DNA of 64,000 nt from assembly GCA_918797485.1 (NCBI GenBank), contig CAKKNE010000006.1, positions 2,232,001-2,296,000 of the forward strand, given 5' to 3'. A program made the translations under genes and the position numbers. The notes under the pieces were generated by a model. It did no database searches, was not told the DNA's origin, and worked only from the letters and a program-made list of their open reading frames with translations. Shown piece by piece: positions 1,485 to 63,858 of the stretch. Numbering within the stretch: the first letter of the stretch is position 1; each line of letters starts with the position of its first letter. This DNA comes from Pelagomonas calceolata (lineage: Eukaryota).

Positions 1485-1506
1485 GCTAGTGTGTCTATGA
1501 ACTAGC
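1485..1506. promoter_or_regulatory. CTAG-pair upstream element (divergent copy)
   Basis: GCTAGTGTGTCTATGAACTAGC between divergent genes. Confidence 0.45.
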
Positions 1507-1713
1507 TCCAGCCTCCCCAATAGGCGTCCGCACGATCACATACGCGCAAACCTAGACATACTGTCCTTCGATCGACGTACCAGCCTCCGCGAAAGCCCTG
1601 CTTGTATACGTAGGCCGGGTTGCAGCTTTGGCCCAACCAGTACTCCAGAGCCAAAAGAGTCCCAGTCCATCCGCGGCGGGGATAAACGCTAGACATCGTA
1701 AAAAGACAGCAAA

Positions 1714-2664
1714 ATGGCCGCCCTGGCCGGCGCCTGGGCGCGCGAGGTCGCCGCCGACGCCTGGCCCGGCCCCGTCAACGAAGGCGCACCGAGAGCTACA
1801 CGATTGTTTGTGGCCGGCGGCGCTACCCACGCGGGCAAGTCGACCGTTTGTTTAGGCATCCTCCAAGCAGCTCTGGAAAAGTACGGCGCTTCCAATATAG
1901 CCTACGTCAAGGCCGCCACCCAAGATGAAAGAGAAGACACGGTGTCGCGGTGGTGCTCTACAAATAAAGTCGAGTATCGTTCGGGAAAGCATTGTCCTAT
2001 TGTGTACTACGCGGGCTTTACAAGAGCGTTCCTCGACGGCTCGGCGGGCACGTCGGCCCAGTGGTTGGATAGAGTCGCATCAGTAGTGGACGACCTCGCC
2101 CAGAACCGGAAATTCGTGCTGGTGGACGGCGTCGGCTTCCCGGCCGTCGGGAGCATCTGCGGCACGTCGAACGCGGATGTCGCCAAACGCCTCGAGGCGC
2201 CCGTTTTGTTAGTGGTGAAGGCGGGCGTCGGGGCTGCTATCGACGAGGCGAATTATGGCACGGCCTTCTTCGGGTCGCGGGACGTGCCCGTGCTAGGCGT
2301 CGTCTTGAACAGAAGCGCCTCTCAGGGCTTCTACGCTAGAGAGAAGATTCTCGCGCCCGTGCACGCGTACTTCGCCAAAACTAGATTGGGGCTGTACGGC
2401 GTCATTCCCGACGAGCCGTCGCTGACGAATCTGAGGAACGAGGCCGCGTCGTCGGACATCGACACGGCACCGGTTGCAACTCACGTGCGGAAGCACGTCG
2501 ATGTCGAGCAATTGATGTCAGACGCGGCGCGCGACCCCTGGAATTCTCGTAGAGCGCCGCCCTCCTCTACAGCAATGGACGCCATCGACGCCGACGATTT
2601 GCGGCTGCGCATCCAGCAGGCCGCGGCGCAGCTGGGGGCCGAGGTCGTCAAGGAGAAGTGCTGA
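1714..2664 (+). CDS. BioD/Pta N-terminal-like P-loop protein (AAA_26 family)
   Basis: LFVAGGATHAGKSTVCLG Walker A; VLVDGVG; NADVAKRLEAPVLLV; GVVLNR. Confidence 0.75.
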   Translation: MAALAGAWAREVAADAWPGPVNEGAPRATRLFVAGGATHAGKSTVCLGILQAALEKYGASNIAYVKAATQDEREDTVSRWCSTNKVEYRSGKHCPIVYYAGFTRAFLDGSAGTSAQWLDRVASVVDDLAQNRKFVLVDGVGFPAVGSICGTSNADVAKRLEAPVLLVVKAGVGAAIDEANYGTAFFGSRDVPVLGVVLNRSASQGFYAREKILAPVHAYFAKTRLGLYGVIPDEPSLTNLRNEAASSDIDTAPVATHVRKHVDVEQLMSDAARDPWNSRRAPPSSTAMDAIDADDLRLRIQQAAAQLGAEVVKEKC

Positions 2665-2761
2665 GGCGGCGGGTGAAGTCGTATTCCTCCCCCTTGCGTG
2701 ATTCGTGACGGCCCGTACCTACTCAGTAGTGGGGTGCGGGCCCGAGTAATTGCTCCATTTA

Positions 2762-3547
2762 CTACTTGCGGTCCATCGGGGCGACGGCGACGACTTCCGC
2801 GACGGCTTGCGGCGTTGCGGCGGCGCCGTAGGGCGGCGGAGCGACGGTCGTTCCGACCGGTTGCGCCGCTTGCGGCGGCGGCGGCGCGTAGCCTTGGACG
2901 ACGGCGCCCGTTGGGGCGGCGGCGTAAGGCGGCGGCTGCGTCACGTGGCCTTGCACGACGCCGCCCGCCGTTGGGGGATAGCTGGAGTTGTACGGCGACG
3001 GAGCAACGGTCGTCGGGACCGCCGGGCCCGGCGCAACTACCGTTCCGACCGCCGGGTTCGCCGCCGGGGAAACTATCGTTCCGACCGCCGGCCCTGCCGC
3101 TGGGACGGCTCCCGCCGTGACGACCACCGCTGGTGCGTTGGCTGGCGTGTAGGCGAGGAGTAAGCCGGGAAACTTCATGGCTCGACCCTTCAAGAGATTG
3201 ACCCACGGCTCGAGCGTGATCCCGAGCGGCGCGAAGGTTTGAGCGTGGCGCGTGCAGAGCTCCTGCATGGCCGTCCACCACTTGTTTCGCACCTCGCCGG
3301 GGCTGTCGAAGCACGGGCCAGAACACCCACATCCGCCGCACTGGGAGAGCGCGAGCGAGGGGAGTTTGTATAACTCTTGGCGGAAGGGCTCCCATTGCGA
3401 TTCTGTGACGCCTTGCGCGGTGAGCCCGGCCGTCAGTCCGCCGTTCGACGATATACGATTGAGTTGGTGCTTGTCGCTGCCGCCCATGAAGAAGAATTTC
3501 GTGCCCTCGGCGCTGTCCTCCGCCGGGATGTGGTGGGCGGCGGACAT
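2762..3547 (-). CDS. Hypothetical protein, possible Erf4/GOLGA7-like domain with Pro/Ala-rich tail; paralog of 3882..4868
   Basis: 261-aa ORF; N-terminal domain aligns by eye with the neighbouring gene; Cys cluster CGGCGC. Confidence 0.6.
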   Translation of the reverse strand: MSAAHHIPAEDSAEGTKFFFMGGSDKHQLNRISSNGGLTAGLTAQGVTESQWEPFRQELYKLPSLALSQCGGCGCSGPCFDSPGEVRNKWWTAMQELCTRHAQTFAPLGITLEPWVNLLKGRAMKFPGLLLAYTPANAPAVVVTAGAVPAAGPAVGTIVSPAANPAVGTVVAPGPAVPTTVAPSPYNSSYPPTAGGVVQGHVTQPPPYAAAPTGAVVQGYAPPPPQAAQPVGTTVAPPPYGAAATPQAVAEVVAVAPMDRK

Positions 3548-3881
3548 AGTCTGCCGTTCGACGCGCGAGTTAGTCTAGCGTTCGTGACCGCTTAATTATA
3601 CTCTCTCCGTTCGAGGACAGCACGACGTGGAGCAGTCTACTAATTCTTGAGCTGAGACAAAAGTATATAATTCTAGGCGGCTCGTAACCCGCAGTAAACG
3701 TTGGTAAGTGCACGTATTCGTCGTATTTACAGCAAGGTTTTCCGCGTGAAGAGGAGATATGGCGCGATCGTACGCGTACGTAAACATAAAAATAAGCTAT
3801 AAGGCTTGGCTTTTTTTTCGGGTTTTTCACGCTTTTTGCTGCAGCTGCGGCGTAATAGAGGAGGACAGACCGGGCGTTTTG

Positions 3882-4868
3882 ATGGCGAGTCGTCTGTTTG
3901 CGCCCGCCTCGTCGGAACGCGTCGACAACTCTGGCTCCCTAAGAGCCTCTGAGGTGAAGGAGCAAGACACTGCTGACAACGAGCCCAGCAGACGGAGGAG
4001 CAGCAGTCTCGTCGGCGATTTGGCCGCGTCTATACTAGGAGCAGACGTGCTCGCGGCCAGGAAGGCGCCGCCGTTCCCGGACGACGCCGAGGACGGCTCA
4101 GACGGTACTCGATACTTTTTTGCGGGCGGAGGCCGGAGCGCGCGTATCTCGTCGCATGGAACGCTGTCGCCGGCGCTCGCAGCCAAGGGCATACCGCCGC
4201 AGCAGTGGGCGGCGTTCCGCGAAGATCTAAAGAAATTGCCTTCGCTCAAGCGATCGATGTGGAGACCGTTGTGTCGGAGCTCCGCGCGAAAACAGGCGTG
4301 GCTCGACGCCGTCGAAGCGCTCGGTGACAAATATATCGCTCTCTTCGCGCCGCTTGGGATCGAGGTCCGCGCGTCCCTCGACGACAGAGCATCGACGCGA
4401 CATCGCGGCCCGGCTATTTTGTTCCGTTATACGCCGGCGGTCGTCGAGCCGGGGGCGACAACTACAATCCCAGTTCCGCCAGGGACGCGCGGCGGCGACG
4501 TGATTCATGCACGCGTGGACGGCCGTGAGATATCGGTCACCGTCCCCTCGCCGCCGCCGATGAAAATAGACGTCGCCGTGCCGCCTCCCTCGGCTCCTCA
4601 AGTCGGCGCATCGTACCAGCCGCTACAGGCACCGTACGTGCCGAAAGCGCCGTACCATCAGCAGGCACCGCCTCCCGCAATGGCCACGGAGTTAAAAGCA
4701 TCTGAGGCCGTTCCCGTCGGCCCGCCGTCGGCGCGCAATCAACGCGCACGCCACCGCGTCGACGACGTCAACGATCTCGAAGCGCCCGGGCGGCCGCCCA
4801 CCCCGCCGTGGCGGGCACGAGCGCCGGCGCGGAACATGTCGGTCGCGGGCGTGAGCGGTATAAATTAG
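3882..4868 (+). CDS. Hypothetical protein, paralog of 2762..3547
   Basis: EDGSDGTRYFFAGG...RISSHGTLSPALAAKGIPPQQWAAFREDLKKLPSL resembles EDSAEGTKFFFMGG...RISSNGGLTAGLTAQGVTESQWEPFRQELYKLPSL; first ATG at 3882. Confidence 0.6.
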   Translation: MASRLFAPASSERVDNSGSLRASEVKEQDTADNEPSRRRSSSLVGDLAASILGADVLAARKAPPFPDDAEDGSDGTRYFFAGGGRSARISSHGTLSPALAAKGIPPQQWAAFREDLKKLPSLKRSMWRPLCRSSARKQAWLDAVEALGDKYIALFAPLGIEVRASLDDRASTRHRGPAILFRYTPAVVEPGATTTIPVPPGTRGGDVIHARVDGREISVTVPSPPPMKIDVAVPPPSAPQVGASYQPLQAPYVPKAPYHQQAPPPAMATELKASEAVPVGPPSARNQRARHRVDDVNDLEAPGRPPTPPWRARAPARNMSVAGVSGIN

Positions 4869-4929
4869 GTATTGTTATACCGAATGAATCCGGAAACAAG
4901 ACGCTGTTTTTTCCCGCCAGCCGTCGGCT

Positions 4930-4953
4930 GCTAGCGGCCTGTAAGACACTAGG
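4930..4953. promoter_or_regulatory. CTAG-pair upstream element
   Basis: GCTAGCGGCCTGTAAGACACTAGG, ~250 bp upstream of ATG 5204. Confidence 0.65.
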
Positions 4954-5203
4954 GATGCCTAGGGAGCACAACAAGCCAAGCTCCAGGCCCTGCACTGTGT
5001 TACGGCACAGCTAATCGTACAGCAACATTGTGTTTCAACGTTCTCTGGTGAGGCAACATCGCCGCCAGCACGCGTAAACGTGTGCCTGTCCCTGTACGGC
5101 TATCTAAGTGGGTCTCTCTGCAGTGCCTGAGAGCTCATCTCTGCAGGCGTCGCACCGGGACGCGCACGAGTTTCCTCCGAAAGAGAACAGACCAGCAGAT
5201 TAG

Positions 5204-6184
5204 ATGCAAGACGAGAACGCACCGCGCGACGCAACCCTACCGTTGCGATTGGCAGTCGTCCTGCTCATTGCATGCACTCAAGTCGGCGCCACGCAGCTCA
5301 CCAGCAGAGTCCAGCGTGGCTTAAACGCACCGTTCGCGATCACCTGGTGCCACGCATGCTTGCAAGTTCTCTGCTGGCCGGCCGGCAACGTTAGGAGGAC
5401 GCCTACGACGGACGCTCTTAACAGAAGCGACCTCGCGATCTTCCCGTTGCTCTTCTTGGGTGCGAATTACGCATATGTCCGAGCGCTCGCTCTGGCGTCG
5501 CCTGCCATCGTGCAGTGCGTCTTCGGCGCCGCACCTGCCGTTGTCTGCGTGCTGTCGAGGCTGTGGCTGAGAGAACCGTTCACGCGACGGCGAGCTCTCG
5601 CCGTCGGCGCCGCGTTATGTGGCGTCGCGCTCGTCGCGGCTCCTTCTGGCTCGGGCAGTCATCATCTGACGATCGGCGCCGTCATCGCGCTCTGCGCGGT
5701 GCTCTGCGCCGCCACGTACAAAGTGCGGTGGAAGCGGCGCTTCGGCGCGCCACCGTCCGATTTTGTTTTGCGAGCCGTCGGGCTCGTCGGCGGCGCTGTG
5801 GCGATATGTAGCTTGCCGATAGCGGTGGCGCTCGCCGCCACCGGCGCCGAGACGCCGCCGGGGCGGTGGACGGCCCACGATACGTTGATCGTGCTCGGCG
5901 GCGGCGTCATCGACGTATTATACAACTGCTCCATCGCGCTCGGGCTGTCGGTTGCGTCGCCCGTATTTGTCGCGACGGGAACAATCCTGGCAATTCCTGG
6001 CAACGCCGTCGTCGACGCGATCCTGGACCGCGAGCGGCTCGGCCCGCTACAGCTGCTCGGAGCGGTCGCGGTAATTGTAGCGTTCGCGGCGCTGGCGTCC
6101 GAGCGGCCGACGACGACGCCAGACGAAGAAACCGACGTGGCAAATCCGCTCGTCGACGACGAGGACGGGGAAACTGTGGTGTAA
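5204..6184 (+). CDS. DMT/EamA superfamily transporter (SLC35F-like)
   Basis: About 10 hydrophobic helices; APFAITW, ANYAYVRAL, LSRLWLREPF, SPVFVATGTILAIP motifs. Confidence 0.8.
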   Translation: MQDENAPRDATLPLRLAVVLLIACTQVGATQLTSRVQRGLNAPFAITWCHACLQVLCWPAGNVRRTPTTDALNRSDLAIFPLLFLGANYAYVRALALASPAIVQCVFGAAPAVVCVLSRLWLREPFTRRRALAVGAALCGVALVAAPSGSGSHHLTIGAVIALCAVLCAATYKVRWKRRFGAPPSDFVLRAVGLVGGAVAICSLPIAVALAATGAETPPGRWTAHDTLIVLGGGVIDVLYNCSIALGLSVASPVFVATGTILAIPGNAVVDAILDRERLGPLQLLGAVAVIVAFAALASERPTTTPDEETDVANPLVDDEDGETVV

Positions 6185-6209
6185 ATTATCTGTAAAAAAT
6201 ACAACATGA

Positions 6210-7016
6210 TTATGATACCCGCTGCCGCGCCAGAAACTCGCGCGCCGCGCGGGGCAGCGCGTCGTCCGCGAGCTCCGCCTCGAGGTCGACCGCGCTCCAG
6301 GCGTCCGCGAAGCGCCGCGACAGGAACGACGCGCCCGAGTCGGGCGACGCGCGCGCGTCGAGGCCCACGTCTGGGATGCGTATCGCGGCGGCGTGCAGGT
6401 AGAGCCTATCTGCTTTTCCGCCGCCGTAGAGGCCGTCGCCGAGAAGCGGCGCGCCAATGCTCTTCGCGGCGACGCGTATCTGGTGCGTCTTACCGGTCAG
6501 TGGTCTCGCGACGAGAAGTCGAGCGGCCGGATCCTCGCCGGGCCCTAGGCCGATCGACCGCGAGAGCCAGGTGCAAGCCGGGTTCGCGCTGTCCCGCGTC
6601 AGCCGCCACTGACTTCGCCGCGAGCGGACCATGTCTCCGACGATGACGCCCTTCTTCTTCGACGGCCTCGAAGCTGTCAGCCCCACGTAGACCTTGGCCA
6701 CGCGTTTCGCCGCGAACGCGTCGCCGATGGCCGCGGCGGCCCGCCGGCCCTTGGCGAGGACGAGGCAGCCGGACGTGCCGTCGTCTAGGCGGTGGCAGAG
6801 TTTCAAGTCCGTGCCGCCCACGAGCTCCAATATACCGGGCCGGTCGTCGCGTCGGTGACAGGGCACGCCGGCCGGTTTGTGGACGACGAGGTACTCAGGA
6901 CCTTCCGCAATAACTGAGATCGTCGGCGTTGACGCCGTCAGCGCCGACGCGCGGGCCACGCAGGCGAGCAGCGTCATAAGTGTCCGCGCGCCGCATCGCT
7001 GACGAATTCCTGCCAT
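6210..7016 (-). CDS. RluA-family RNA pseudouridine synthase, organelle-targeted
   Basis: VVHKPAG, HRLDDGTSGCLVLAK, PLTGKTHQIRV, GAPLLGDGLYG, LYLHA; start uncertain (7016 or 6977). Confidence 0.9.
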   Translation of the reverse strand: MAGIRQRCGARTLMTLLACVARASALTASTPTISVIAEGPEYLVVHKPAGVPCHRRDDRPGILELVGGTDLKLCHRLDDGTSGCLVLAKGRRAAAAIGDAFAAKRVAKVYVGLTASRPSKKKGVIVGDMVRSRRSQWRLTRDSANPACTWLSRSIGLGPGEDPAARLLVARPLTGKTHQIRVAAKSIGAPLLGDGLYGGGKADRLYLHAAAIRIPDVGLDARASPDSGASFLSRRFADAWSAVDLEAELADDALPRAAREFLARQRVS

Positions 7017-7184
7017 GCGTACTGCAGGTCTTGCAGGTGGAGGAGGCTCACGTCGAGTGCGGCGGCGGAACGTCCATATGAGTGCTGCAGCGGTGCAGCC
7101 TCGATCTATGTGATCAAAATCGATGCCCAATCTGCATCTCTACCTGCAAATCGACCCCCTGCTATTCTACGGCTGTGAGCGCTA

Positions 7185-7208
7185 GCTAGCGGTCCGTAAC
7201 ACACTAGC
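7185..7208. promoter_or_regulatory. CTAG-pair upstream element
   Basis: GCTAGCGGTCCGTAACACACTAGC between divergent genes. Confidence 0.6.
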
Positions 7209-7388
7209 AATCATACGCTGGAGTGCATATGCGCCTCTGGCGACGAGGTGCGCCTGAGACGAGTCCGGGCGTCTTATTGCATCGCCAGAGACTGCAAGAA
7301 CCACCCCTCGTTCCAAGCGCGCCGTAAAACTTGCATAACTTTGGGCTGAGTCGGTTTCACCTTTTTTTGCGTACGTCTAAGGAAGACG

Positions 7389-7845
7389 ATGCGCCTCGCT
7401 CTCGTGATATGCATCCTCCACGCCGCCGCCGCCAAGCAGGCGGACACGCTACTATTGAGAGAGGACCAGTGCGACGACGCGTTATTCGTCGCCCACTGGA
7501 CGCACGTGCCCAAGGCCGGCGGGACCGCATTAGCGGGTTTGGCGCGGCGCATCGCCTGCGCGAAGAACCCCCAGATCAAGCACCTGAACCCCTGCTGCAT
7601 CCAGGACTTTTGCGCTGACCACCGGACCTGCGAGGCGACGGCGACGACGTGCCCCCTCATCAAACTTGTGCGGGGCGCTCGACTTTTCCAGGGTCGACGA
7701 CGTCTGCGGGCGGTTGGAAACAAGGGAGGTGCTGCTGAAGAAGGCGGCGCACGACGCGCGGTGCGCGCACCGAGGACCTGGAGCTGTGCCCCGGATCGCG
7801 GACAGAGGAGGGTTGTTTTCGCAGCTGTGAGAAGCTTAACACTTA
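7389..7845 (+). pseudogene. Secreted sulfotransferase-like fragment, apparently truncated or frameshifted
   Basis: Signal peptide MRLALVICILHAAAA and HWTHVPKAGGT (5'-PSB-like loop); protein-like sequence shifts frame after ~7670. Confidence 0.4.
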
Positions 7846-7848
7846 ACA

Positions 7849-8352
7849 TTAGTGGTACTCCGCGCACCAGTCACAAAACGGCGGCGCCCCGGGCACGTCG
7901 TGGCACGCGCACGAGCATCCCCCATCATACTTCGAGGACCCGACCCAGCACGCGTCGTCGTTCAAGTCGACGGCCTTGCCGCCGCCGCCGTCGGCGTCAC
8001 CGTCGGCGACGCGCAGCGCGTGCGCGTCGGCGTCGAACGCACCGGCCTCGCACGCGTCTAGGAAGGGCGCCGCGTCGACAATTGCGACCCCTAGTTTCGC
8101 CGCCTTGCGCACGCGCTGCGTCCTGCGTTCGACGGCGCCGGCGCTCGCCAGCAAGACGTGGACGTTGCGATGGACGGTAGCGCTGTAGGTGCCGCCCAAC
8201 GCTTCGGCGCGCGACCGCACGCTCGCGAAGGAGCCCGTCGCGTCGTCGTCGCCGCGGGCCGCGTCGACACTGATGCTGAACGTACCGATGGCCGAGTCCT
8301 TCGTTTCTTTTTTGCGTCGGCGTCGCCGTTTCTTGGGCCGTGGTTGCTCCAT
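7849..8352 (-). CDS. BRCT-domain small protein
   Basis: AEALGGTYSATVHRNVHVLLAS...TQRVRKAAKLGVAIVDAAPFLDAC; basic NLS; C-terminal Cys cluster. Confidence 0.7.
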   Translation of the reverse strand: MEQPRPKKRRRRRKKETKDSAIGTFSISVDAARGDDDATGSFASVRSRAEALGGTYSATVHRNVHVLLASAGAVERRTQRVRKAAKLGVAIVDAAPFLDACEAGAFDADAHALRVADGDADGGGGKAVDLNDDACWVGSSKYDGGCSCACHDVPGAPPFCDWCAEYH

Positions 8353-8518
8353 CTTCACAGAGAGCACTTATGAGCAGAGAGCGAGGGCAAGCCGAACGGA
8401 TGGGTTGAGTGCTAGCGCGCAGCGTAAATTGGCATGCAGCCGCAAACAGTGATTAGAGTTGCGCCTGCACGCCCTCTCGTACGGCGCTGCTTGCAGGCCT
8501 TGCTTGTGGTTGCAGCGT

Positions 8519-8540
8519 GCTAGTGTCTTGCGACGCTAGC
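8519..8540. promoter_or_regulatory. CTAG-pair upstream element
   Basis: GCTAGTGTCTTGCGACGCTAGC upstream of the BRCT gene. Confidence 0.55.
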
Positions 8541-8579
8541 TCCCTGCATAGGATCCCGTGATTAGTAGCCTCCTGTGAT

Positions 8580-9130
8580 CACCGAAGGCCGATTCTAGGT
8601 CCTTCAGAGACGGATGAAACGCGCATTCATCCTAGAGGTGTATACAGAAGGTTATGTGGCTGCCCGAGCTCGGGCCACGAGAAGCCGATTCTGGAGCTCG
8701 GTCAAGTCGGTCGATTCAAATATAAACCATCGTGCTAAGGTCCCTGGTGATTGGACCGTCGCTGATAGTCTCTGGGTTATCCTATTTGCCCGTCTTTACT
8801 GATCGTTGCGGGGCGGCGTGCTGGGGACCGCAGCTAACGATTCTGTAAAGACGGACAAATAATTAGACCTCGAGATACCACGCGACGCCACCATCCAGGG
8901 GGACCATAGAACTGTTGTTATATTCGCGATCGACTCACTTACGAGTTGTCCAGAGTCGGCCGTGGGTAGACGGAGCACAGAAAGGCCCCCAGACTCGTGG
9001 AGAGTCATGAATAAATTTGCGTTTGCGTCGCAACGGTCCTAGATGTAGAATGGTCCATCCAATCGAGATGAACGAACTCTCTCTACATAGGATTCCCTGT
9101 TTCGTAAGCCGCGATCATGCAAATACGGGC
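8580..9130. repeat. Dispersed AT-richer repeat, homologous to 25720..26420 (possible degraded TE)
   Basis: GCGACGCCACCATCCAG, TGTT.TATTC..ATCGAC, CGGAGCAC.GAAAGGCCCC.GAC and AATAAATTTGCGTTT are shared, in order, with 26061-26200. Confidence 0.65.
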
Positions 9131-9259
9131 AAATGACCCGGAGTTGCGACTATTTATTCCTTTCCCGCTCCTGTGCCCCGCGCAGCGGATGGTGTCTGCT
9201 TGGCGCACGTACAGTGTTTGCTTCCGCATACATCGTAGCGATTGACTAGTCTAGCGTGC

Positions 9260-10117
9260 ATGTCGTCGTCGGTCGGTGCCGAGGCCGCGGGCGCCGCGCC
9301 GCCGCCGTCGCCGCCGCCCGCGCCGCGCGCGCCGCCGCCGCGCATGGCGACGCCGCCCCCGTCCGCGCCGCTCGAGGAGAAGCCGTGCGCGTCGTCGTCG
9401 CCGCCGCCGCCCGTGACGACGCCGCCCGTGCGGTGCGAGGAGCCGGCGCCCGCGCCGTGCAAGGCGCCCGCCCAGGAAGACGCGTCGCCGGCCGCGGTCG
9501 TGCAGGAGAAGCCCGCGGTGCGCGTACCGGCCCGCTCCTTCGTCGCGCAGTGCGTGGAGAAGATCGAGGGGGGCGCCGCGGGCATCGACAAGGAGGAGAC
9601 GGGTGCCGCGCGCGCCGCCGCCGCGCGCGAGGCGCGGGCCGCCGAGCGCGCCGCCGCGGAGGCCAAGCTCAAGGAGGAGGCCGCCGCGCGCGAGGAGGAG
9701 CAGGCCGCCGCGCTCGCCGCCGCGGAGGCCAAGCTCAAGAACGAGGAAGACGCCGCGGCCGCGGCCGCGGCCGCGAAGTCCAGCAAGAAGACCCTGTCCA
9801 AGGCTCCGGCGGCTGACGCTAACTCGCCGCCGACGACGCCGCTGCGCACCCCCAAGGGCCGCTCTCCTTCGGGCCGCTCTACTTCATCATTGTCGTCCGT
9901 CCTCTCGAAGCTGTCGGATTTAACGAAGCGCAAGAACATGCCTTTCCGTACTAGATATCGCCGCGAGAAGTCGCTGTACGGGACGAACGCGTCGGATTAT
10001 GGCACCGAGCGGGCCCTCCGGGCCCGCCGCGGCAGCGGCCATGTGGCTCCGGGACGCTTCGCCAAGGTCCGGGCCAGGATTGCGCGGTTGACCGGCCGCG
10101 CGGCGCCGTCGAGCTAG
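9260..10117 (+). CDS. Hypothetical Pro/Ala/Glu-rich low-complexity protein
   Basis: Open ORF with high GC3; repeated AAEAKLK. Confidence 0.5.
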   Translation: MSSSVGAEAAGAAPPPSPPPAPRAPPPRMATPPPSAPLEEKPCASSSPPPPVTTPPVRCEEPAPAPCKAPAQEDASPAAVVQEKPAVRVPARSFVAQCVEKIEGGAAGIDKEETGAARAAAAREARAAERAAAEAKLKEEAAAREEEQAAALAAAEAKLKNEEDAAAAAAAAKSSKKTLSKAPAADANSPPTTPLRTPKGRSPSGRSTSSLSSVLSKLSDLTKRKNMPFRTRYRREKSLYGTNASDYGTERALRARRGSGHVAPGRFAKVRARIARLTGRAAPSS

Positions 10118-12497: not shown

Positions 12498-12521
12498 CCT
12501 AGTGTCTCTACAGGCCGCTAG
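12498..12521. promoter_or_regulatory. CTAG-pair upstream element
   Basis: CCTAGTGTCTCTACAGGCCGCTAG, ~190 bp upstream of the thioesterase ATG. Confidence 0.6.
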
Positions 12522-12564
12522 ACGCCATCGACGCGCCATAAAGAACTTCGCTATTTACCCCACC

Positions 12565-15992: not shown

Positions 15993-16017
15993 GCTAGCGG
16001 CCGGTAAAGACACTAGC
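15993..16017. promoter_or_regulatory. CTAG-pair upstream element
   Basis: GCTAGCGGCCGGTAAAGACACTAGC, ~190 bp upstream of ATG 15804. Confidence 0.6.
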
Positions 16018-18479: not shown

Positions 18480-18502
18480 GCTAGCGGCTGTAAGACACTA
18501 GG
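18480..18502. promoter_or_regulatory. CTAG-pair upstream element
   Basis: GCTAGCGGCTGTAAGACACTAGG followed by AATGCCTAG, between divergent genes. Confidence 0.65.
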
Positions 18503-18758
18503 AATGCCTAGCACTGCCGTAGTGCCGCCGAGCAAAACACAGCCTGCACAGCCTTGCTGCATGCTAACGCGGCGGCAAATAGGCCGCACACTGCCGCATT
18601 CAGTTGCTGAAAGCTTCCGGTGCTGTCTCGACGCGTATCAGTGCTGTCTCCGCGAGTTGCTCTCTTGCAGCAGCTCTAGCGGTGCTCTGTTGCAGTGGCC
18701 GAGCGGTGCGTTACTCCAGGCAGCTCGCGCACGAGCCCTGCGACGCGCACAAGCCGTG

Positions 18759-19885: not shown

Positions 19886-20207
19886 CGCTGCGTAGTCCCT
19901 GGGTGTCTCCCGGTGTGCGGCACCGCTGCGGCGGTCCTAGAGTGTGCGGCGCGCGGTACCACACTGTAGAGTGTGCGCGCTGCCGAGGGCTACCCAGTGA
20001 TCGGCGCGTCCGGAGCTGTGGAGCTACGTGGCGCTGCCCGGCTCGGCGCAGGCCTCTGGTACGCTTGGTTGCGCGGCGACGGACGGCGTCCTCCCCAAGT
20101 TTGAGAGGCGGCGGCGCCGGGACGGCGGAGGTCGGCTCCCTCCGTCAGAAGAGCTCTGGGGAGACTTAGAAACGTATCTAAGAACCCGCAGCGGTGTGTC
20201 TCCTGAT

Positions 20208-20231
20208 GCTAGTGTCTTACAGGCCACTAGC
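20208..20231. promoter_or_regulatory. CTAG-pair upstream element
   Basis: GCTAGTGTCTTACAGGCCACTAGC between COPZ and fibrillarin. Confidence 0.65.
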
Positions 20232-20436
20232 TCGATTTCACCGCGAGAGCCTGGACTGAAGCGGCGAATACGAGCGTGCCGCCGCACCCGGAAGCCGGCC
20301 TGCGTGTTCGTAGGTCCCACTGGTGCGAGACCTCGGCGTAACCAGCGAGCGACGCGCCCGCAGCGGCCCCGCGCAACAGTTGCAGCGGCTCGCCGGGAGC
20401 AGAGCGCTGCGCTAAAGGAGCGCCGCAGAGGCACAA

Positions 20437-21324
20437 ATGGGCGGCTTCGGCTCGCCCGGCGGCGGACGGGGACGAGGCGGCAAGGGCCGCGGGAGAGGAG
20501 GAGGCAAGGGCGGCCGCGGCAGAGGCGGCGGCAAGGGCAAGGGCCGCGGCAAAGGAGGCAAAGGCAAGGGCAAGGGCAAGGGCGGCGCCAAGGGCGGCGC
20601 CAAGGTCGTCGTCGAGCCTCATAGACATGAGGGCGTCTTCATCGCGAGAGGCAAGGAGGACGTCATTGTGACCCTCAACAGCACCCCCGGCAAGGACGTC
20701 TATGGGGAAAAAAGAATTAGTGTGGACGGCCCGGCGAACGAGGACGGCACGACGACCAAGATTGAATACAGAGTGTGGAATCCGTTCCGCTCGAAGCTGT
20801 GCGCCGCAATCCTCGGCGGCGTCGATACGATACACATGAAACCCGGTAGCAAAGTTTTATACTTGGGAGGCGCCGCGGGTACCACAGTATCCCACGTGTC
20901 TGATCTAGTCGGCCCGCAGGGCTGCGTCTACGCCGTCGAGTTCTCGCACCGGCCGGGCAGAGATTTGATTAATATGGCCAAGCATAGAACCAACGTCATT
21001 CCCATAATAGAAGATGCCAGACACCCGCTCAAGTACCGCATGTTGGTGGGCATGGTCGATTGTGTGTTTGCGGACGTCGCGCAGCCGGATCAAGCCCGAA
21101 TTGTCGCGTTAAATTCGCAGTACTTCCTCAAGGCGGGCGGCGGCTTCGTGGTCTCGATCAAGGCGTCGTGTATTGATAGTACGGCGACGCCGGAGGCCGT
21201 CTTCGCCGCCGAGGTCGCGAAGCTCCAGAAGGACCAGTTCAAGCCCAAGGAGCAGCTGACGCTCGAGCCGTACGAGCGCGACCACGCGGTCGTGGTTGGC
21301 TTGTACCGGCCGCCCAAGAAGTAG
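20437..21324 (+). CDS. FBL: Fibrillarin (rRNA 2'-O-methyltransferase)
   Basis: GAR domain; [55 protein letters not shown]. Confidence 0.98.
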
Positions 21325-21632
21325 CCTACTACGCGTCGCCTAAGGGTCGCTCCACCACGTTTAGTATCTCGTCGGCCAGCCTTGCCGGGGCTCGGGGCGT
21401 GCCTAGGGGCTCAAAAACGTATGAGGCCGGGGGCGGGAAAAACATTCATGGCGAGAAGCTCGGTACAACGAGGTCCGTACTACTAGATTCAGAGAGCCGA
21501 CCCTTACTCGGGCGCCAGAGCGTAGTCGTGCTCGGGGGAAGAGGGGAAGGGCGCGCGGCTCCGGCGTCGTCTCGCGCCGCGGCCCGTTGTTTGGGGGAAG
21601 GGAGACTGTCGCAACAGCCCTTGAAAGCGCCG

Positions 21633-22004
21633 CTAGGGCGCGACCGCGGCCAACGGTTCGTCCTCGTCGCCGCAGTCCTTGATCTCGCACGTGCAGCCGC
21701 CCTCGCCGCCGTTGAAGCACGTGTCGACGCCGCCCTGGCCGACGACGTAGTTGTAGCCGCCCGACGCGGCGAGCGTGTCGTCGCCCCAGCCGCCGTCCAA
21801 ATAGATGTAGTCGCCGACGGCCTCCACAATGTCGTCGCCGTCGTCGGCGTAGACGTAGAGCTCGTTGCCGGCGACGCGCGCGCAGTCGTCGTAGGGCGTG
21901 AGCGTGACCTCGGTGCCGTCGGGCACGGCGCCGTCGAAGCAGACGCACGACGACGCGTCGCCGAAGTCGAAGCCGTTGCTGCCGTCGACGACGGCGCATA
22001 AGCG
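21633..22004 (-). CDS. Fragment with RTX/hemolysin-type Ca-binding GGxGxD-like repeats (5' end unresolved)
   Basis: YADDGDDIV, LDGGWGDDTL, VGQGGVDTC; an in-frame stop or possible 3' splice site lies just upstream. Confidence 0.45.
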   Translation of the reverse strand, partial: RLCAVVDGSNGFDFGDASSCVCFDGAVPDGTEVTLTPYDDCARVAGNELYVYADDGDDIVEAVGDYIYLDGGWGDDTLAASGGYNYVVGQGGVDTCFNGGEGGCTCEIKDCGDEDEPLAAVAP

Positions 22005-22251
22005 CTAAGTCTTTCCGACGTATTCAGCTTGCGAAACTTTTAGAGTGAAGCACTGAGTCCGCCGCGGGGGGGCGCGAACGGTCGGAACGTTGAAAGAGTC
22101 ACGCTGCGATGAGTACAACTAGCGCCGAGGTAAATGCGCCTCCTCGACTCCTGTTTTTCACGCCCAGGATTTTCTCCGTAAACCTGCCCGTAGGTCTTCA
22201 GCGGCCTAAGAGGCGTCCGAGACGGCTGCGAGGCCGGTTTTTCCAAATGGT

Positions 22252-22274
22252 GCTAGCGTCATAAACACACTAGG
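22252..22274. promoter_or_regulatory. CTAG-pair upstream element
   Basis: GCTAGCGTCATAAACACACTAGG. Confidence 0.5.
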
Positions 22275-22508
22275 AAACTCTGTCCCGATGAGCTTCATGC
22301 GCGCCCATTTAGCTGCCCGAGGCTGCCCCGTTACGTCCTGAACGTTGAAACCCCGCACGATACGCCCCGACGCCACGCCGCCGCACGCCTTAGCCGCCCT
22401 CCGCGCCCGCGACACGCCTCCGCCGTCGGCGAGTGCGTAAATATGAGCCTTCTACGTGGTTCACGAGACGGAACGGATCGCTTGACGCGCATAAATAACA
22501 CAGCCAAC

Positions 22509-23141
22509 TTAGTCCAGTAGCCACTCGTCCCCCGACGCCTTCTCCGTAGGAGCCTCCTCCGATGCCGCCGCCGGCGGCGCCTCGTCTTCGTCATCGTCCA
22601 AACCCAAAGCCGCGTCCAATAAATCGGACGCGTCGTCCGCGAAGAGCGGGTCCTTCTCCTCCTTGACGACCGGTTCGATGTCGTCCACCGCCTCGACCTT
22701 TGTCGTCTTCTTCTGCTGCTTCTTTTTTCTTGGTTTATTGATTTTCTCGTCCTCGTCGTCGTCGACGAAGCGCCCCGCCTTCTCGAGGCGCTCCCAGGGA
22801 CTGAGCATGGCCGGGTGGTTCGCGGGAAGCCGCGCGTGGAAGGGCGCCTCGAAGAACGCGTGCGGCGCGATATTTGCTACTAAACTCAGATCTTCCAGAG
22901 GAGCGTTGTCTCTGGCAGTACCGGGCACGCAGGTCCCTTCGTAGGTCTCGTCGGGCACGTATTCGTCGGGCCAGTCCCGGAACCGATCTAGAGTAGAGTC
23001 CTCGTCCTGCTCGACATAACCAGAACCCTTCGGGGCGTAGAGGTGCCGTTTGATTGAGTGCCTCGTTGGTGTTGTCGTGACGTGGAACGCTGTTGTTGTG
23101 CAGGCGGTCGCGGCGACGGCGGCGCGGCGGAGGCGGCCCAT
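22509..23141 (-). CDS. Hypothetical plastid-targeted protein; its predicted 5'UTR intron hosts tRNA-Trp
   Basis: Leader ...ATACTTTAF (ASAFAP-like); acidic C-terminus. Confidence 0.65.
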   Translation of the reverse strand: MGRLRRAAVAATACTTTAFHVTTTPTRHSIKRHLYAPKGSGYVEQDEDSTLDRFRDWPDEYVPDETYEGTCVPGTARDNAPLEDLSLVANIAPHAFFEAPFHARLPANHPAMLSPWERLEKAGRFVDDDEDEKINKPRKKKQQKKTTKVEAVDDIEPVVKEEKDPLFADDASDLLDAALGLDDDEDEAPPAAASEEAPTEKASGDEWLLD

Positions 23142-23154
23142 CGCTGTTCTGTGC

Positions 23155-23308
23155 CTGTGGGTGTACCGTAGGCGTTGCCGCCATGGCCACCTGTAAAGTG
23201 ACCGATACGCGATTCGAACGCGTAACCTTCAGGACTGGAATCTGACGCGCTGCCGTTGCGCCAATCGGTCGGTCGAAGACAAGTAACGATGAGACGCCGC
23301 CGCGGTAC
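23155..23308 (-). mobile_element. tRNA-carrying intron element, copy 1 (154 nt)
   Basis: Minus strand GTACCGCGGCGGCGTC...tRNA...GCCTACGGTACACCCACAG|GCAC, ending 14 nt before ATG 23141. Confidence 0.65.
23199..23270 (-). tRNA. trnW: tRNA-Trp (CCA)
   Basis: GACCGAT TGGCGCAACGGCAGCGCG TCAGA TTCCAGT CCTGA AGGTT ACGCG TTCGAAT CGCGT ATCGGTC A: 7-bp acceptor stem, CCA anticodon, TTCGAAT T-loop. Confidence 0.93.
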
Positions 23309-23479
23309 GGCTCGGGGACGCCCTTGGGCAGTGCCGGCGAGCGCTGCTAAAGGCCGGCGTTGCGGCGCTGTTGTTGCCGTGTCGCAGTGTTGGCGTCAAG
23401 GACACTTGTGCACACACTTCTTTACTCGGTGACGGCGTGCAAGTGTGGTTTTGCGCCGCTGTTCAACTCTGGCGCAGGT

Positions 23480-23503
23480 GCTAGCGGCATGTAAGACACT
23501 AGC
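23480..23503. promoter_or_regulatory. CTAG-pair upstream element
   Basis: GCTAGCGGCATGTAAGACACTAGC upstream of the tRNA-hosting gene. Confidence 0.65.
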
Positions 23504-27027: not shown

Positions 27028-27051
27028 GCTAGTGTCTTACAAGCCGCTAGC
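27028..27051. promoter_or_regulatory. CTAG-pair upstream element
   Basis: GCTAGTGTCTTACAAGCCGCTAGC, ~235 bp upstream of ATG 27285. Confidence 0.65.
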
Positions 27052-29535: not shown

Positions 29536-29559
29536 GCTAGTGCCTTACATGCCGCTAGC
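29536..29559. promoter_or_regulatory. CTAG-pair upstream element
   Basis: GCTAGTGCCTTACATGCCGCTAGC between divergent genes. Confidence 0.65.
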
Positions 29560-32931: not shown

Positions 32932-33090
32932 GCTGCACTGCAGCTACAGTGTGTTGCGCGCGTCTGTCGCGTCGAAGCAGCTTGTGCAGCGGCGGCAGCG
33001 TCACGGTTTCGATGAATGCGGCTCAGCGAGCACGCTTATGTGGTAGCTGAAGTGAGTGCGGCGCCTCAGCAGCTTCAGCTTCGCCTATTT

Positions 33091-33113
33091 CTAGTGGTCT
33101 TACAGACGCTAGC
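33091..33113. promoter_or_regulatory. CTAG-pair upstream element
   Basis: CTAGTGGTCTTACAGACGCTAGC between divergent genes. Confidence 0.6.
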
Positions 33114-35721: not shown

Positions 35722-35850
35722 GCTAGCTGCTGTAAGGCACTAGCAGGCAACGCGTTCGGCAATGAGCCAGTTTGAGGAGATCCCGCCCCCGGGGCGCGGC
35801 TTCCAGGGCTCCCGCGCTTTAGGTGGGCTAGCGGCCTGTAAGACACTAGC
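35722..35850. promoter_or_regulatory. Two CTAG-pair upstream elements
   Basis: GCTAGCTGCTGTAAGGCACTAGC (35722-35744) and GCTAGCGGCCTGTAAGACACTAGC (35827-35850) upstream of the AP2 gene. Confidence 0.65.
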
Positions 35851-37151: not shown

Positions 37152-37175
37152 GCTAGTGTCTTACATGCCGCTAGC
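37152..37175. promoter_or_regulatory. CTAG-pair upstream element
   Basis: GCTAGTGTCTTACATGCCGCTAGC between divergent genes. Confidence 0.65.
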
Positions 37176-38389: not shown

Positions 38390-38395
38390 CATTAA

Positions 38396-39391: not shown

Positions 39392-39413
39392 GCTAGTGTA
39401 GACAGGCACTAGG
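39392..39413. promoter_or_regulatory. CTAG-pair upstream element (divergent copy)
   Basis: GCTAGTGTAGACAGGCACTAGG between divergent genes. Confidence 0.45.
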
Positions 39414-41826: not shown

Positions 41827-41852
41827 GCTAGTGTGTCTTACATGCCGCTAGC
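41827..41852. promoter_or_regulatory. CTAG-pair upstream element
   Basis: GCTAGTGTGTCTTACATGCCGCTAGC between divergent genes. Confidence 0.65.
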
Positions 41853-45306: not shown

Positions 45307-45330
45307 GCTAGCGTATGTAAAGCCACTAGC
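45307..45330. promoter_or_regulatory. CTAG-pair upstream element
   Basis: GCTAGCGTATGTAAAGCCACTAGC between divergent genes. Confidence 0.55.
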
Positions 45331-50266: not shown

Positions 50267-50290
50267 GCTAGCGGCTGTAACACACTTAGC
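50267..50290. promoter_or_regulatory. CTAG-pair upstream element
   Basis: GCTAGCGGCTGTAACACACTTAGC between divergent genes. Confidence 0.6.
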
Positions 50291-50463: not shown

Positions 50464-51894
50464 ATGCCGCGGAGCGCCAGACACACGATGGGCGGCCGGG
50501 AAGTCCTCGACGCGAAGACGATGCTGGACCTGCTCGAGGGCTCGGCCTCCGACGGCGGGCCCACGGTCACCATCGACGTGGACGTGTTCAAGGACAACTT
50601 CGGCGCGCCGCCGCCGCGGCGGAGCAGCGTCTCGGGGGGCCGGCGGTCGAGCTCGAGCGGCGCCTCGCGCCGCCGCGAGACGGCGGACCCGGCGCAGCTC
50701 AAGGAGCTGCTCCAGGCGTGCCTACTCGAGGGCAACGACGCGGCGGCGGCCGCGAGCCCGACGAGCCAGCCGCCGCGGCCCGCGCCGCGCCGGAGCCCGC
50801 GCTTCGCCAAGCCGCGGAGGCGGATGACGTGCGACCCGCGCCTGCTGAACCGCCTCGTCATGGAGCACTCGGGCGAGATCCCGACGATCCCCGAGGAGAC
50901 GAGCGCCACGGAGTCGCTCACGTCGAACCCGTACCGCGGCCGCGTCCGTCGTAGGTGCCTTCCGACCGATTGGCGCAACGGTAGCGCGTCAGATTCCAGT
51001 CCTGAAGGTTACGCGTTCGAATCGCGTATCGGTCACTGCCAGCTCGTCGATGCGCGCTGCCGACGGTCCACCCACAGGCTCACGAGCAATCTGACGAGCA
51101 ACCCGGCGACGAGCAACCTCACGAGCGGCGTCAGCAACCTCACGTCGGGCACGGGGCTCGAGTCCTTCGAGGAGAGCCGCGCGGCGGCGGCGCACGAAGA
51201 TCCACAAGAGAACGAGGACGACGACGACGACGAGGACGACGTGAGCTACGCGCGGCCCGTCGCGGCGCGTTCGTCAATTGCGTGGACCTTCGACGAGACG
51301 CGCGCGACGATGCAGGAGCTGCGGCGCCAGCTGCAGATCGAGAAGGAGGTGTCGCGCGACGCCGAGCGCGAGCGCGACGAGCTCGCGCGCGAGTTGAGTG
51401 GAATGCGCGCGGAGCAGGCCGCTAGAAGCGAGGTGCAGCAGGCGCTCGAGGCGCAGCGCGACGCGGCGGCGGCGCGCGCGTCGTCGGCCGAGGGCCGCGC
51501 GACGCGCGCGGACGCGGCGCTCGGCCGGCAGTCCCAGGAGTTCGCGGCCATCGACGCGGACCTCGCGGCGCGGGAACGGGAGATTGAACAAAGCGCCGAG
51601 CGCGTGAAACTCGAGGCCGACGCGCGCGTCGCCGCGGCCGAGCGCGACAAGGCCGAGGCCGAGGCCGAGCTCCTCGCGTTGAGGGACGAGGCGGCGGCTT
51701 TACGGGCGCGCGTGGCGCAGCTCGAGAAGGTCAAGATCACGTCGGGCCTCGCGGCGAAGATCCAGAAGGTCGTTCAGGAGCGCGACGAGTTATTGGCGGC
51801 GGCGCGCAAGGGCGGCCGGTTCAACGACGAGAACGCGGCGCCGTTCGGCGCCGAGGACCTCTCCCAGGCCGGCGGCGAGTGCCGCCAGTCCTAG
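50464..51894 (+). CDS. Coiled-coil protein with LTSN repeats; intron 50931..51077 hosts tRNA-Trp
   Basis: After removing 147 nt the repeat reads ESLTSNP-LTSN-LTSNP-ATSN-LTSG; C-terminal CRQS (CaaX-like). Confidence 0.7.
   Translation: MPRSARHTMGGREVLDAKTMLDLLEGSASDGGPTVTIDVDVFKDNFGAPPPRRSSVSGGRRSSSSGASRRRETADPAQLKELLQACLLEGNDAAAAASPTSQPPRPAPRRSPRFAKPRRRMTCDPRLLNRLVMEHSGEIPTIPEETSATESLTSNPYRGRVRRRCLPTDWRNGSASDSSPEGYAFESRIGHCQLVDARCRRSTHRLTSNLTSNPATSNLTSGVSNLTSGTGLESFEESRAAAAHEDPQENEDDDDDEDDVSYARPVAARSSIAWTFDETRATMQELRRQLQIEKEVSRDAERERDELARELSGMRAEQAARSEVQQALEAQRDAAAARASSAEGRATRADAALGRQSQEFAAIDADLAAREREIEQSAERVKLEADARVAAAERDKAEAEAELLALRDEAAALRARVAQLEKVKITSGLAAKIQKVVQERDELLAAARKGGRFNDENAAPFGAEDLSQAGGECRQS
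50931..51077 (+). mobile_element. tRNA-carrying intron element, copy 3 (147 nt)
   Basis: GTACCGCGGCCGCGTC...tRNA...GCCGACGGTCCACCCACAG; interrupts the codon CC|G. Confidence 0.75.
50964..51035 (+). tRNA. trnW: tRNA-Trp (CCA)
   Basis: GACCGATTGGCGCAACGGTAGCGCGTCAGATTCCAGTCCTGAAGGTTACGCGTTCGAATCGCGTATCGGTCA. Confidence 0.95.
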
Positions 51895-61962: not shown

Positions 61963-62108
61963 TTTTTTTTAGCCGCAGTTCTCGTCGCAGCGCTATCCTT
62001 CGCAAGTACTGCTCCGCTGCGGTTCGCGGCGCCCCCTGTGAGCTCCGCTGTGGACAATTTGGCCCAGCAATTATGGTCGACTCCAAGACTCCAAAGTCGA
62101 CCCGAATT

Positions 62109-62132
62109 GCTAGTGCCTTACATACCGCTAAC
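62109..62132. promoter_or_regulatory. CTAG-pair upstream element
   Basis: GCTAGTGCCTTACATACCGCTAAC between divergent genes. Confidence 0.55.
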
Positions 62133-62185
62133 TCATTTTTTCGAGCAGTTTCGAGCCCGCAGGGCCATTGGCAGCATAGAGAGCA

Positions 62186-63730
62186 ATGAGAGCGCTACTT
62201 ACATTCGCATTGCTGGCCTGCAGCGCGCGGGCCGGCTGGTTCAGCCGCGGTGGCACTGAAAAGCCAGATACCAAAAAAGCAGCCCCAGCAACACCAGCCG
62301 CGCCCGACGCCGCCGAGAAAAAGACAAAGGCGCCGCCGCCGCCGCCCGTCGAAGAGCTGGCCGCCGCCGAAAGGGACCACACCTGCGCCGCCGGCCTCGT
62401 GTTCGATGTCTACGCGAACGGCGCGTCTGAAAATCCGGTCAGAGTAGAAATGTCCGGCGGCCAGTGCGAGACGGTAGCGGCCTTCGAAGCTGCCGTGTCG
62501 AGAGCGGTTTGTGAAGATACGGCGGCCTGTCATGTGCGAGACGGCGCCGGGAGAAGAGTACGGCGCTGCTCCGAACTCTCGAGAAACAGCGCCGAGGCGG
62601 GCGTCCAGCCTGGATTAATCCCGCGGGCCTACGGTGTCAGGAGAGACATGCGCTGGGTCTTTCCGACGGAGGAGGTTGGTTATAAACGATACTTACCCCA
62701 CCTGCAGATCACGTTAACGACGCTCGCGGAGGAGCCTCGACTTTTCGCCCTCGACAACTTCCTGACCGAAGAGGACGCGTCGCAGCTCATCGAAGACGCC
62801 CTAGCTATTTCTGATGATGAGCACAAGCTGACACGGAGTAGTGTGGGCGCCAAGGGCTACACGGTGTCCTCCACGAGAACGTCGGAGAATGCTTGGGTCA
62901 AAGATACAAAAACGGCCATGCGCATGAAACGTCGAGCGTTTGAATTACTGGGCTTCGACCATTACGACGAGCGCATGGCCGACGGGCTGCAAGTTCTCAG
63001 ATATAACAACACGAATGGCTATGCGGCGCACAAGGACTACTTAGATAGGCCGCGAGGTTTGTCGAGGGAAGCGATGGAGCCGTCCCTGGGTGGTGCTAAT
63101 AGACTCGCGACGGTGTTCTTGTACTTATCCGACGTGCAACACGGCGGCCAGACGGTCTTTCCTCACGCGCCGCGGCCTTCGATTGCATCATCATTACCAG
63201 CTTTGGAGTCCAGACCGTTAGATGACGAGGTCATTGGACTGAGAGACGCTATAGTATCAAAAGATGAATACACGTGGGAGCCCCGTTTGATCGATGAGTG
63301 CTATACCAAATTAGCAGCAGCCCCGAAGAAAGGTCGCGCGATCCTCTTCTACAGCCAACATCCGGATGGTACGTTGGACAACATGGCGACGCACGGCGGC
63401 TGCCCCGTCCTCGAGGGCACGAAGTGGGCGTCGAATCTGTGGATCTGGAACAAGGCGATGCCCTTTGGTTCTTCTCGGTTCCAGTCAAAGGACGACGATT
63501 CAGGAGATAGCTCAGGCGTCGACGTCGAGGTCTCTACTACTGGTGTCAGTGCCGAAGTGTTCTGGGTTGGTGGCGGCGGCGAGGAGGCGCCCATGGGGAC
63601 GGTCTCACAGGGAGACAACCTGCGGCTGAACTCGTTCGTGGGACACTCGTTCGTGGCGCGGCGGAATGGCGCGGAAGTTTCTAGGTATACGGTCGCGCGG
63701 GGGGCGCAGGCGTGGGCCGTGCCTCCGTAA
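62186..63730 (+). CDS. Prolyl 4-hydroxylase alpha-like 2OG-Fe(II) oxygenase
   Basis: RTSENAW, LQVLRY, HKDY, NRLATVFLYLSDVQHGGQTVFP, HGGCPVLEGTKW; signal peptide. Confidence 0.92.
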   Translation: MRALLTFALLACSARAGWFSRGGTEKPDTKKAAPATPAAPDAAEKKTKAPPPPPVEELAAAERDHTCAAGLVFDVYANGASENPVRVEMSGGQCETVAAFEAAVSRAVCEDTAACHVRDGAGRRVRRCSELSRNSAEAGVQPGLIPRAYGVRRDMRWVFPTEEVGYKRYLPHLQITLTTLAEEPRLFALDNFLTEEDASQLIEDALAISDDEHKLTRSSVGAKGYTVSSTRTSENAWVKDTKTAMRMKRRAFELLGFDHYDERMADGLQVLRYNNTNGYAAHKDYLDRPRGLSREAMEPSLGGANRLATVFLYLSDVQHGGQTVFPHAPRPSIASSLPALESRPLDDEVIGLRDAIVSKDEYTWEPRLIDECYTKLAAAPKKGRAILFYSQHPDGTLDNMATHGGCPVLEGTKWASNLWIWNKAMPFGSSRFQSKDDDSGDSSGVDVEVSTTGVSAEVFWVGGGGEEAPMGTVSQGDNLRLNSFVGHSFVARRNGAEVSRYTVARGAQAWAVPP

Positions 63731-63835
63731 GTTTATCGTGTGGTTAGCTTGCCTTTGGGGCCGCGTCGGCGGCTTCTTGCGGACGGCTATTCACGCAGTT
63801 TTAAGGCTCAGGCTCAGTTCGTCGCGTATTTAAAT

Positions 63836-63858
63836 ACTAGTGTGTTACTGGTCGCTAG
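63836..63858. promoter_or_regulatory. CTAG-pair upstream element (for a gene presumably beyond the window)
   Basis: ACTAGTGTGTTACTGGTCGCTAG. Confidence 0.45.

Follow-up and report, generated by a model that had tools for sequence, protein, structure and literature searches.

Introduction

Why should one long sequence element recur beside genes that have little to do with each other? The question is raised by a 64,000-bp stretch of the Pelagomonas calceolata genome (GCA_918797485.1, contig CAKKNE010000006.1, positions 2,232,001 to 2,296,000, forward strand), referred to here as the window, in which a 24-bp element built around a pair of CTAG words accompanies most promoter regions. The window is gene dense, with 62.9% GC, and its genes are functionally unrelated, both housekeeping and photosynthetic; for the whole genome, 63% GC, 32.4 Mb, and 16,667 genes are given in the portion of the genome report used here (PMC9481584). 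The nearest named homolog of the ALAD protein of the window comes from Pelagophyceae sp. CCMP2097 (74%), with environmental proteins ranking above it at 84 to 98%. The element is probably functional and apparently undescribed. We consider it probable that it is an orientation-independent promoter site, acting in both directions in a TATA-less context, for a putative dimeric general factor that sets transcription starts, while a mobile origin of the element is less sure than its promoter role.

Occurrence and anatomy of the element

The 24-bp element is real. A preliminary description of the window had claimed 22 coordinates, and the element or a degenerate form of it is present at all of them. 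CTAG pairs at a spacing of 18 bp, which leaves a 14-bp core, occur 11 times in the window, against one to four times for other spacings up to 60, and 20 window sites reach a gapped consensus score of at least 26, compared with 7 in total across 30 simulated 64-kb windows. A profile hidden Markov model (HMM), trained on metagenome copies only and then run on the window, found 20 of the 22 sites at 10.4 to 33.2 bits, with the next-best other match at 5.4 bits; its null gave 0.05 matches of at least 9 bits per 14-kb set and a maximum of 11.5. In the two missed sites, at 1485 and 39392, the core is 12 bp long and both CTAGs and one half-site are retained; they are probably degenerate copies. No further strong sites were found in the window beyond the 22.

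Each copy consists of inverted half-sites, GCTAG(C/T)G, around an asymmetric core, whose CTAG-to-CTAG length is 14 bp in 147 of 164 copies and 12 to 16 bp in the remaining 17. In 40 copies lying outside the selection imposed by the search pattern, and with insertions uncounted, changes affect 2 of 320 cells in the eight CTAG columns and 58 of 520 cells in the 13 core columns (p = 1e-10). As the half-sites are constrained, compensatory changes are missing at the outer pair, and folding is ordinary, recognition of the two half-sites as sequence by a dimer would fit better than neutral decay or a hairpin. A/T tracts are enriched within 20 bp of the element, and the element has no match in Rfam.

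Position relative to genes

The gene models of the window are based on open reading frames and cover 49,234 of the 64,000 bp, the gene to the right of 63836, at the window edge, being assumed. None of the 22 copies lies inside a gene model (P about 1e-14). The outside set came from a metagenome scan that returned at least 124 matching stretches, from 121 loci of 55 to 71% GC, and was reduced by 8 allelic or orthologous duplicates to 140 copies for the gene-position counts. Here too, no copy falls within a predicted coding sequence (CDS) (0/140, with a coding share of 59% in loci L001 to L078), so the absence from CDS that had been claimed for the window holds in both sets. The matched loci span pairs from alleles more than 99% identical to pairs of about 77%, so the element is carried by several related lineages.

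In the window, the element is present in 13 of 20 divergent gaps, 8 of 9 tandem gaps, and none of 19 convergent gaps. Taken together, 21 of 29 promoter-type gaps contain it, usually as one copy per promoter; the earlier wording that it marks most promoter regions is therefore correct, and the term "ubiquitous" is too strong. Its reported absence from convergent junctions is true of all 19 window gaps, though these sum to only 1,193 bp, so that finding zero copies there is not significant alone (P = 0.16), and one of the 33 two-sided metagenome cases (L018) is convergent. The gene ends that face metagenome copies are 5' ends in 99 of 123 cases and 3' ends in 24 (p = 5e-12), and the 5' ends lie left in 52 cases and right in 47, without orientation bias. 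An orientation bias at tandem promoters, hinted at by the window, was not borne out by these counts or by the ATG distances on the left and right (p = 0.051). These distances range from 47 to 526 bp, with medians of 192 and 151 bp.

The convergent genes of the window nearly touch each other, with gaps of 0 to 245 bp and a median of about 31 bp. One RNA contig, at 37314-39253, crosses two of them, which suggests that 3' ends overlap at these junctions.

Relation to transcription starts

RNA 5'-end data cover positions 20001 to 40000 of the window in one sample. The nine proxies for transcript starts lie 14, 28, 30, 30, and 33 bp from an element in five cases and 117, 137, 139, and 142 bp in the other four. 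A new observation is that the flanks, when read outward, contain a CA/AG-rich and CpG-poor zone 130 to 160 bp from the element, on both sides and only toward gene starts. CpG frequency there is 0.091, compared with 0.117 and 0.139 on either side of the zone (n = 286 flanks, p = 5e-13), and the CpG-poor zone is found toward 5' gene ends (n = 121, p = 5.5e-10) and not seen in flanks leading to 3' ends (n = 32, p = 0.37). It is sharper when flanks are aligned on the element than on the ATG. Since the zone was picked after inspection of the profile, we used a best-position test in which the anchors were jittered within 70 bp; over 300 trials the maximum was 0.032, against an observed 0.075. The zone would be the start region, a reading backed by the four more distant RNA proxies.

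We looked for TATA, CCAAT, and INR-like (Initiator-like) words with a positional peak in the flanks and found none; TATA[AT]A words number 17 in 274 flanks, again without a positional peak, which indicates a TATA-less context.

Orientation at orthologous loci

Locus L100 is orthologous to the window promoter that holds the copy at 41827..41852 (minus strand, 16-bp core). The neighboring CDS is identical at 155 of 163 positions, and in L100 a block of about 40 bp bearing the element is inverted. Between L030 and L086, the element differs in both orientation and position. Altogether, it faces the opposite way in 2 of 7 matched loci and agrees in the other 5, and its orientation is thus free in evolution.

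Proposed mode of action and points against it

The promoter reading draws on location, orientation independence, half-site constraint, and the distance-phased start-like zone. A dimeric factor would bind both GCTAG(C/T)G half-sites, with a flexible spacer between them, and, once bound, would keep the DNA open or recruit the initiation machinery at a fixed reach. Judging from the phasing, starts on either side would be set about 135 to 160 bp off, in some cases about 30 bp, so that one site would serve both genes of a divergent pair, and would do so for unrelated genes alike.

Several observations weigh against this reading. The nine RNA proxies come from one sample and fall into two distance classes, and five of them are contig ends, formally no proof of a start. 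In the window alone, the CA/AG rise has p = 0.52 (n = 35), with p = 0.01 for the CpG dip. Eight of the 29 promoter-type gaps have no element, and the element-less divergent pair at 24421-24876 is still transcribed. About 100 polyA RNA reads aligned at 35823-35854 contain the element between flanks that differ from those of the window; they come from another locus, at which at least one copy is therefore transcribed. Copies are less dense outside the window, with 26 extra ones in 265 kb, or about 1 per 10 kb compared with 1 per 3 kb; by extrapolation from these two densities, the genome would hold roughly 3,000 to 10,000. Cores that are longer or shorter by up to 2 bp (17/164) are unusual for a rigid dimer site. 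Since the motif served to pick the orthologous pairs, both members necessarily have it, and the pairs are no unbiased measure of conservation. No CpG periodicity of nucleosome length is phased to the element, and nucleosome positioning, one of the functions suggested in the preliminary description, was not borne out. Finally, the binding protein, open chromatin, and a need of the element for expression are predictions from sequence.

Probable traces of mobile DNA

A segment of 84 bp lies to the left of a window copy, between the two members of a direct pair (35744..35827, plus strand). Of 149 left flanks, 9 contain it, the window copy included, always collinear and with varied 5' cut points, at loci that are non-orthologous; each reverse-complement control gave 0 of 149. 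In 34 of 149 copies the element runs directly into CAAG on its right, and in 2 CAAG directly adjoins it on the left; 8 copies have two CAAG units. A common 3' end, variable 5' truncation, and a tail of short repeats are what characterizes the 3' ends of short interspersed nuclear elements (SINEs) and of retrotransposons without long terminal repeats, and the segment and the element together resemble a small mobile unit that has the element at its end. Target-site duplications show no excess over shuffled pairings among 149 copies, a clear 7- to 8-bp repeat being seen at the window copy only. Helitron 3' ends have a GC-rich hairpin about 10 bp ahead of a CTAG; in the segment, a stem of 6 bp is located 10 bp from the left CTAG, on its 5' side, and the longer unit folds no better than shuffles (z = +1.2).

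On the other side of the element, 11 of 153 copies have an exact 6-mer, in either orientation, after their right CTAG; it is missing from all 154 left sides and from all 1165 sides of other CTAGs. It is usually followed by a further CTAG, giving a 10-bp extension, and this extra CTAG is intact in just 5 of 17. The alleles L005 and L076 (99.4% identical) differ by exactly this extension. With a fixed short remnant, duplicated target flanks, either orientation, and polymorphism, the extension has the properties of a cut-and-paste footprint and resembles the scar left when a transposon excises from a duplicated target, the alternative being a deletion from a longer variant. No full-length inserted element was found at the right CTAG in 161 flanks. 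The suggestion of a domesticated transposon footprint is partly supported for the history of the element, given the shared, truncated upstream repeat and the recurrent 10-bp insertion, and does not describe its current state.

Three hallmarks of known classes fail here. For a SINE head derived from tRNA, 5S, or 7SL RNA, the 84-bp segment from the window and five other loci has no Rfam match. A Helitron 3' end with target T does not fit, as the base after the right CTAG is T in 3 of 155 copies and the left CTAG is followed by C. A loxP-like recombinase site has inverted arms, as here, but the core is 12 to 16 bp and not fixed.

L018, the only convergent-gap copy, sits within a nest of repeats. 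L018 and L052 contain a unit similar to miniature inverted-repeat transposable elements, with a variant CTAG-14-CTAG, which in both loci adjoins a 26-bp palindrome centered on TTAA; the palindrome is found at unrelated loci (L018 3795-3930, L052 1-75, and L079 584-610). The L018 palindrome leads into telomere-like repeats, the 84-bp family, and a perfect element, and the whole array lies within the convergent gap.

If the small mobile unit is genuine, new copies would be seeded by it, with the element and the CAAG repeat at its end, and the rest of the unit would decay while selection kept the 24 bp. The extension suggests, moreover, that the bound site would attract a second element at the right CTAG. 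A stronger version, which we regard as possible but rather doubtful, is that the promoters of Pelagomonas, among the most abundant eukaryotes in the ocean, derive from the tail of a mobile unit that is still spreading and whose last 24 bp would be the main two-way start-site ruler, harmlessly flippable, and also the landing site of a second, CTAG-duplicating transposon guided by the bound factor.

Competing explanations

The same traces can be read without any function. A small mobile element could have inserted into open promoter DNA, the 24 bp being its most-retained 3' end or an excision scar, and such a neutral remnant would agree with the variably truncated segment at non-orthologous loci, with the one-sided CAAG, and with a sole convergent-gap copy buried in repeats. 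We consider it improbable, as the half-sites are constrained by position while the CTAG of the extension decays freely, the start-like zone keeps a fixed distance, promoters usually have a single copy, and target-site duplications are in no excess. It is quite improbable that the element is a site recognized and cut by a recombinase, transposase, or nuclease and retained at promoters as a landing pad. Such an enzyme could account for the 6-mer confined to right CTAGs in both orientations, its presence or absence between the alleles L005 and L076, the direct element pairs flanking a segment (window 35722/35827 and L061), and the opposite orientation at 2 of 7 matched loci; it does not agree with the variable core length or with the lack of a long insertion at the right CTAG, it leaves the phased start zone unexplained, and the allelic difference could equally be a deletion between direct CTAGs. 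Among the rows listed of the published Pelagomonas gene table, a single gene is labeled as Tc1-like DDE and none as Harbinger, piggyBac, or Helitron (PMC9481584).

A replication origin, a cohesin or condensin site, or a boundary site, located in nucleosome-free promoter DNA and not directing transcription, would suit an orientation-free copy every 3 to 10 kb, adjoining unrelated genes and enriched in nearby A/T tracts, but a compositional zone phased to the element toward gene starts only makes this highly improbable. That a DNA or RNA hairpin matters, by its structure rather than its sequence, is barely credible: the ends do pair as a 5-bp stem and the local inversions are compatible with hairpin template switching, but the element folds no better than shuffles (z = -0.87), its outermost pair has no compensatory change, and the asymmetric core is itself conserved.

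Comparison with known systems and significance

Reb1 and Abf1 are general regulatory factors, and the split site of Abf1 is a parallel to the bipartite element; the Drosophila DRE is 8 bp long. The element is about three times longer than the DRE, bipartite, and indel tolerant, and we claim no sequence likeness. The resemblance to DRE/DREF and to Ohler motif 1/M1BP lies in a sequence-specific site at TATA-less promoters of unrelated genes, thought to replace recognition centered on the TATA-binding protein; in the passages cited, these motifs are reported not to instruct the start position (PMC10183819), whereas here a start-like zone is phased 130 to 160 bp off on both sides. Reb1 and Abf1 sites of budding yeast similarly have a preferred distance upstream of the starts of many unrelated genes (PMC3170328, in part). 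Their sequence differs, one single element occupies 21 of 29 promoter gaps here, and the factor and a nucleosome link remain putative in Pelagomonas.

For dispersal, the closest likeness is to ISX of Drosophila miranda, a mobile element that disperses a regulatory (dosage-compensation) site and whose copies could be homogenized by gene conversion; ISX differs in having 77 sites on one chromosome, against an estimated thousands of promoters here, where a minority of copies keep the carrier sequence (PMC4384637, passages on ISX). The oomycete INR is the nearest stramenopile core-promoter element that we found described, and, going by the sections cited, it spans the start and is directional (PMC3597505), unlike the upstream and orientation-free element. 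Pelagophyte introners are numerous short repeats of mobile origin in the same lineage, but they are introns of about 200 bp with terminal inverted repeats, according to the part of the genome report that treats them (PMC9481584), and the element is 24 bp long and intergenic. Identity with an introner element was rejected, with 0 of 22 copies inside gene models. Membership in any named motif or transposon family is not established.

We found no published description of the element in the Pelagomonas, Aureococcus, or pelagophyte literature, in a search that left subscription papers and bioRxiv supplements outside, and no match to the 13-letter core string in the literature. Huff and colleagues have reportedly published papers on Aureococcus nucleosomes and introners that could bear on the novelty of the element. 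The available passages of PMC9481584, 10.1101/2024.10.30.620910, PMC13284251, PMC12054182, and 10.64898/2026.09.29.755320 contain no promoter or motif passage on it. CTAG methylation in an Aureococcus giant virus, mentioned in the portion cited of PMC12700378, was considered as a link and dismissed, as nothing here connects the two.

Pelagophyte genomes have been sequenced, and their promoter logic is undescribed in the literature searched. One long element at most promoters offers a handle on TATA-less start choice in a compact stramenopile genome, is usable as a part for expression constructs, and could serve as a marker for better annotation of gene starts in ocean metagenomes. With its signs of mobility, it is also a case in which the turning of a transposon-borne site into genome-wide core promoter architecture can be tested.

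Occurrence in viruses and prokaryotes

The strict pattern has no match in viral contigs, and neither the 84-bp segment nor the TTAA palindrome was found there. Relaxed-pattern viral matches (13 stretches, 8 of them identical, 35 to 47% GC) contain no consensus copy and were set aside as chance. Prokaryote genomes gave one match, L122, a perfect element in alga-like DNA within the first few kb of contig 13 of the bacterial bin G001. Given this location, no prokaryote occurrence is claimed, and L122 is probably contamination or a chimera.

Individual copies in the window

The probable degenerate copy at 1485..1506 (minus strand) is at the center of a divergent promoter. The copy at 4930..4953 (plus) lies upstream of an EamA gene and bears at its right CTAG a 10-bp extension (4953..4962, plus) made of the 6-mer and the duplicated CTAG. 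A divergent promoter contains the copy at 7185..7208 (plus), with a tandem CTAG on its left side. Departures in core length are seen at 8519..8540 (minus, 12 bp), at 12498..12522 (minus, 15 bp, with a decayed 10-bp extension), at 15993..16017 (plus, 15 bp), and at 18480..18502 (plus, 13 bp), the last followed by an extension whose 6-mer has one mismatch (18502..18511, plus).

In the region with RNA data, the copy at 20208..20231 (minus), between a clathrin-adaptor-family gene and fibrillarin, has an RNA 5' pile-up at 20091 (117 bp), and pile-ups also mark the consensus copy at 23480..23503 (plus; 23450, 30 bp) and the copy at 29536..29559 (minus; 29506, 30 bp). RNA contig ends are found near the consensus copy at 27028..27051 (minus; 27079, 28 bp), the copy at 33090..33113 (minus; 33058, 33 bp, and 33127, 14 bp), and the consensus copy at 37152..37175 (minus; 37015, 137 bp, and 37314, 139 bp). 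The probable degenerate copy at 39392..39413 (minus) has pile-ups at 39247 and 39252 (about 142 bp). Another copy is located at 22252..22274 (plus). The direct pair consists of an older copy at 35722..35744 (plus) and a consensus copy at 35827..35850 (plus), the latter followed by the CAAG repeat.

Further along the window, copies are found at 45307..45330 (plus), at 50267..50290 (plus, one base inserted in the right CTAG), at 62109..62132 (minus, one substitution in the left CTAG), and at 63836..63859 (minus).

Other repeats in the window

Promoter gaps of the window, element-less ones included, also appear to share a second short word, GGGCAGCC or its complement (for example at 43347, 43457, 47714, 52829, and 56223), and at several loci it seems to cluster 34 to 51 bp right of the element. 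Two low-GC, non-coding patches, at 8600-9150 and 25700-26950, have in common a repeat of 119 to 143 bp at about 73% identity, which is multicopy in DNA and RNA runs and is probably a transposon remnant. L004 shares the flank that leads into the second patch.

A 76-bp repeat, tried as an introner core, proved to be tRNA-Trp. Three near-identical tRNA-Trp(CCA) genes, at 23198-23270 (minus), 24282-24354 (minus), and 50964-51036 (plus), lie inside protein genes of the same strand. The one at 24282-24354 is within a spliced intron of 150 nt, and similar intron-like ends surround all three, which suggests an introner-like intron family bearing a tRNA gene.

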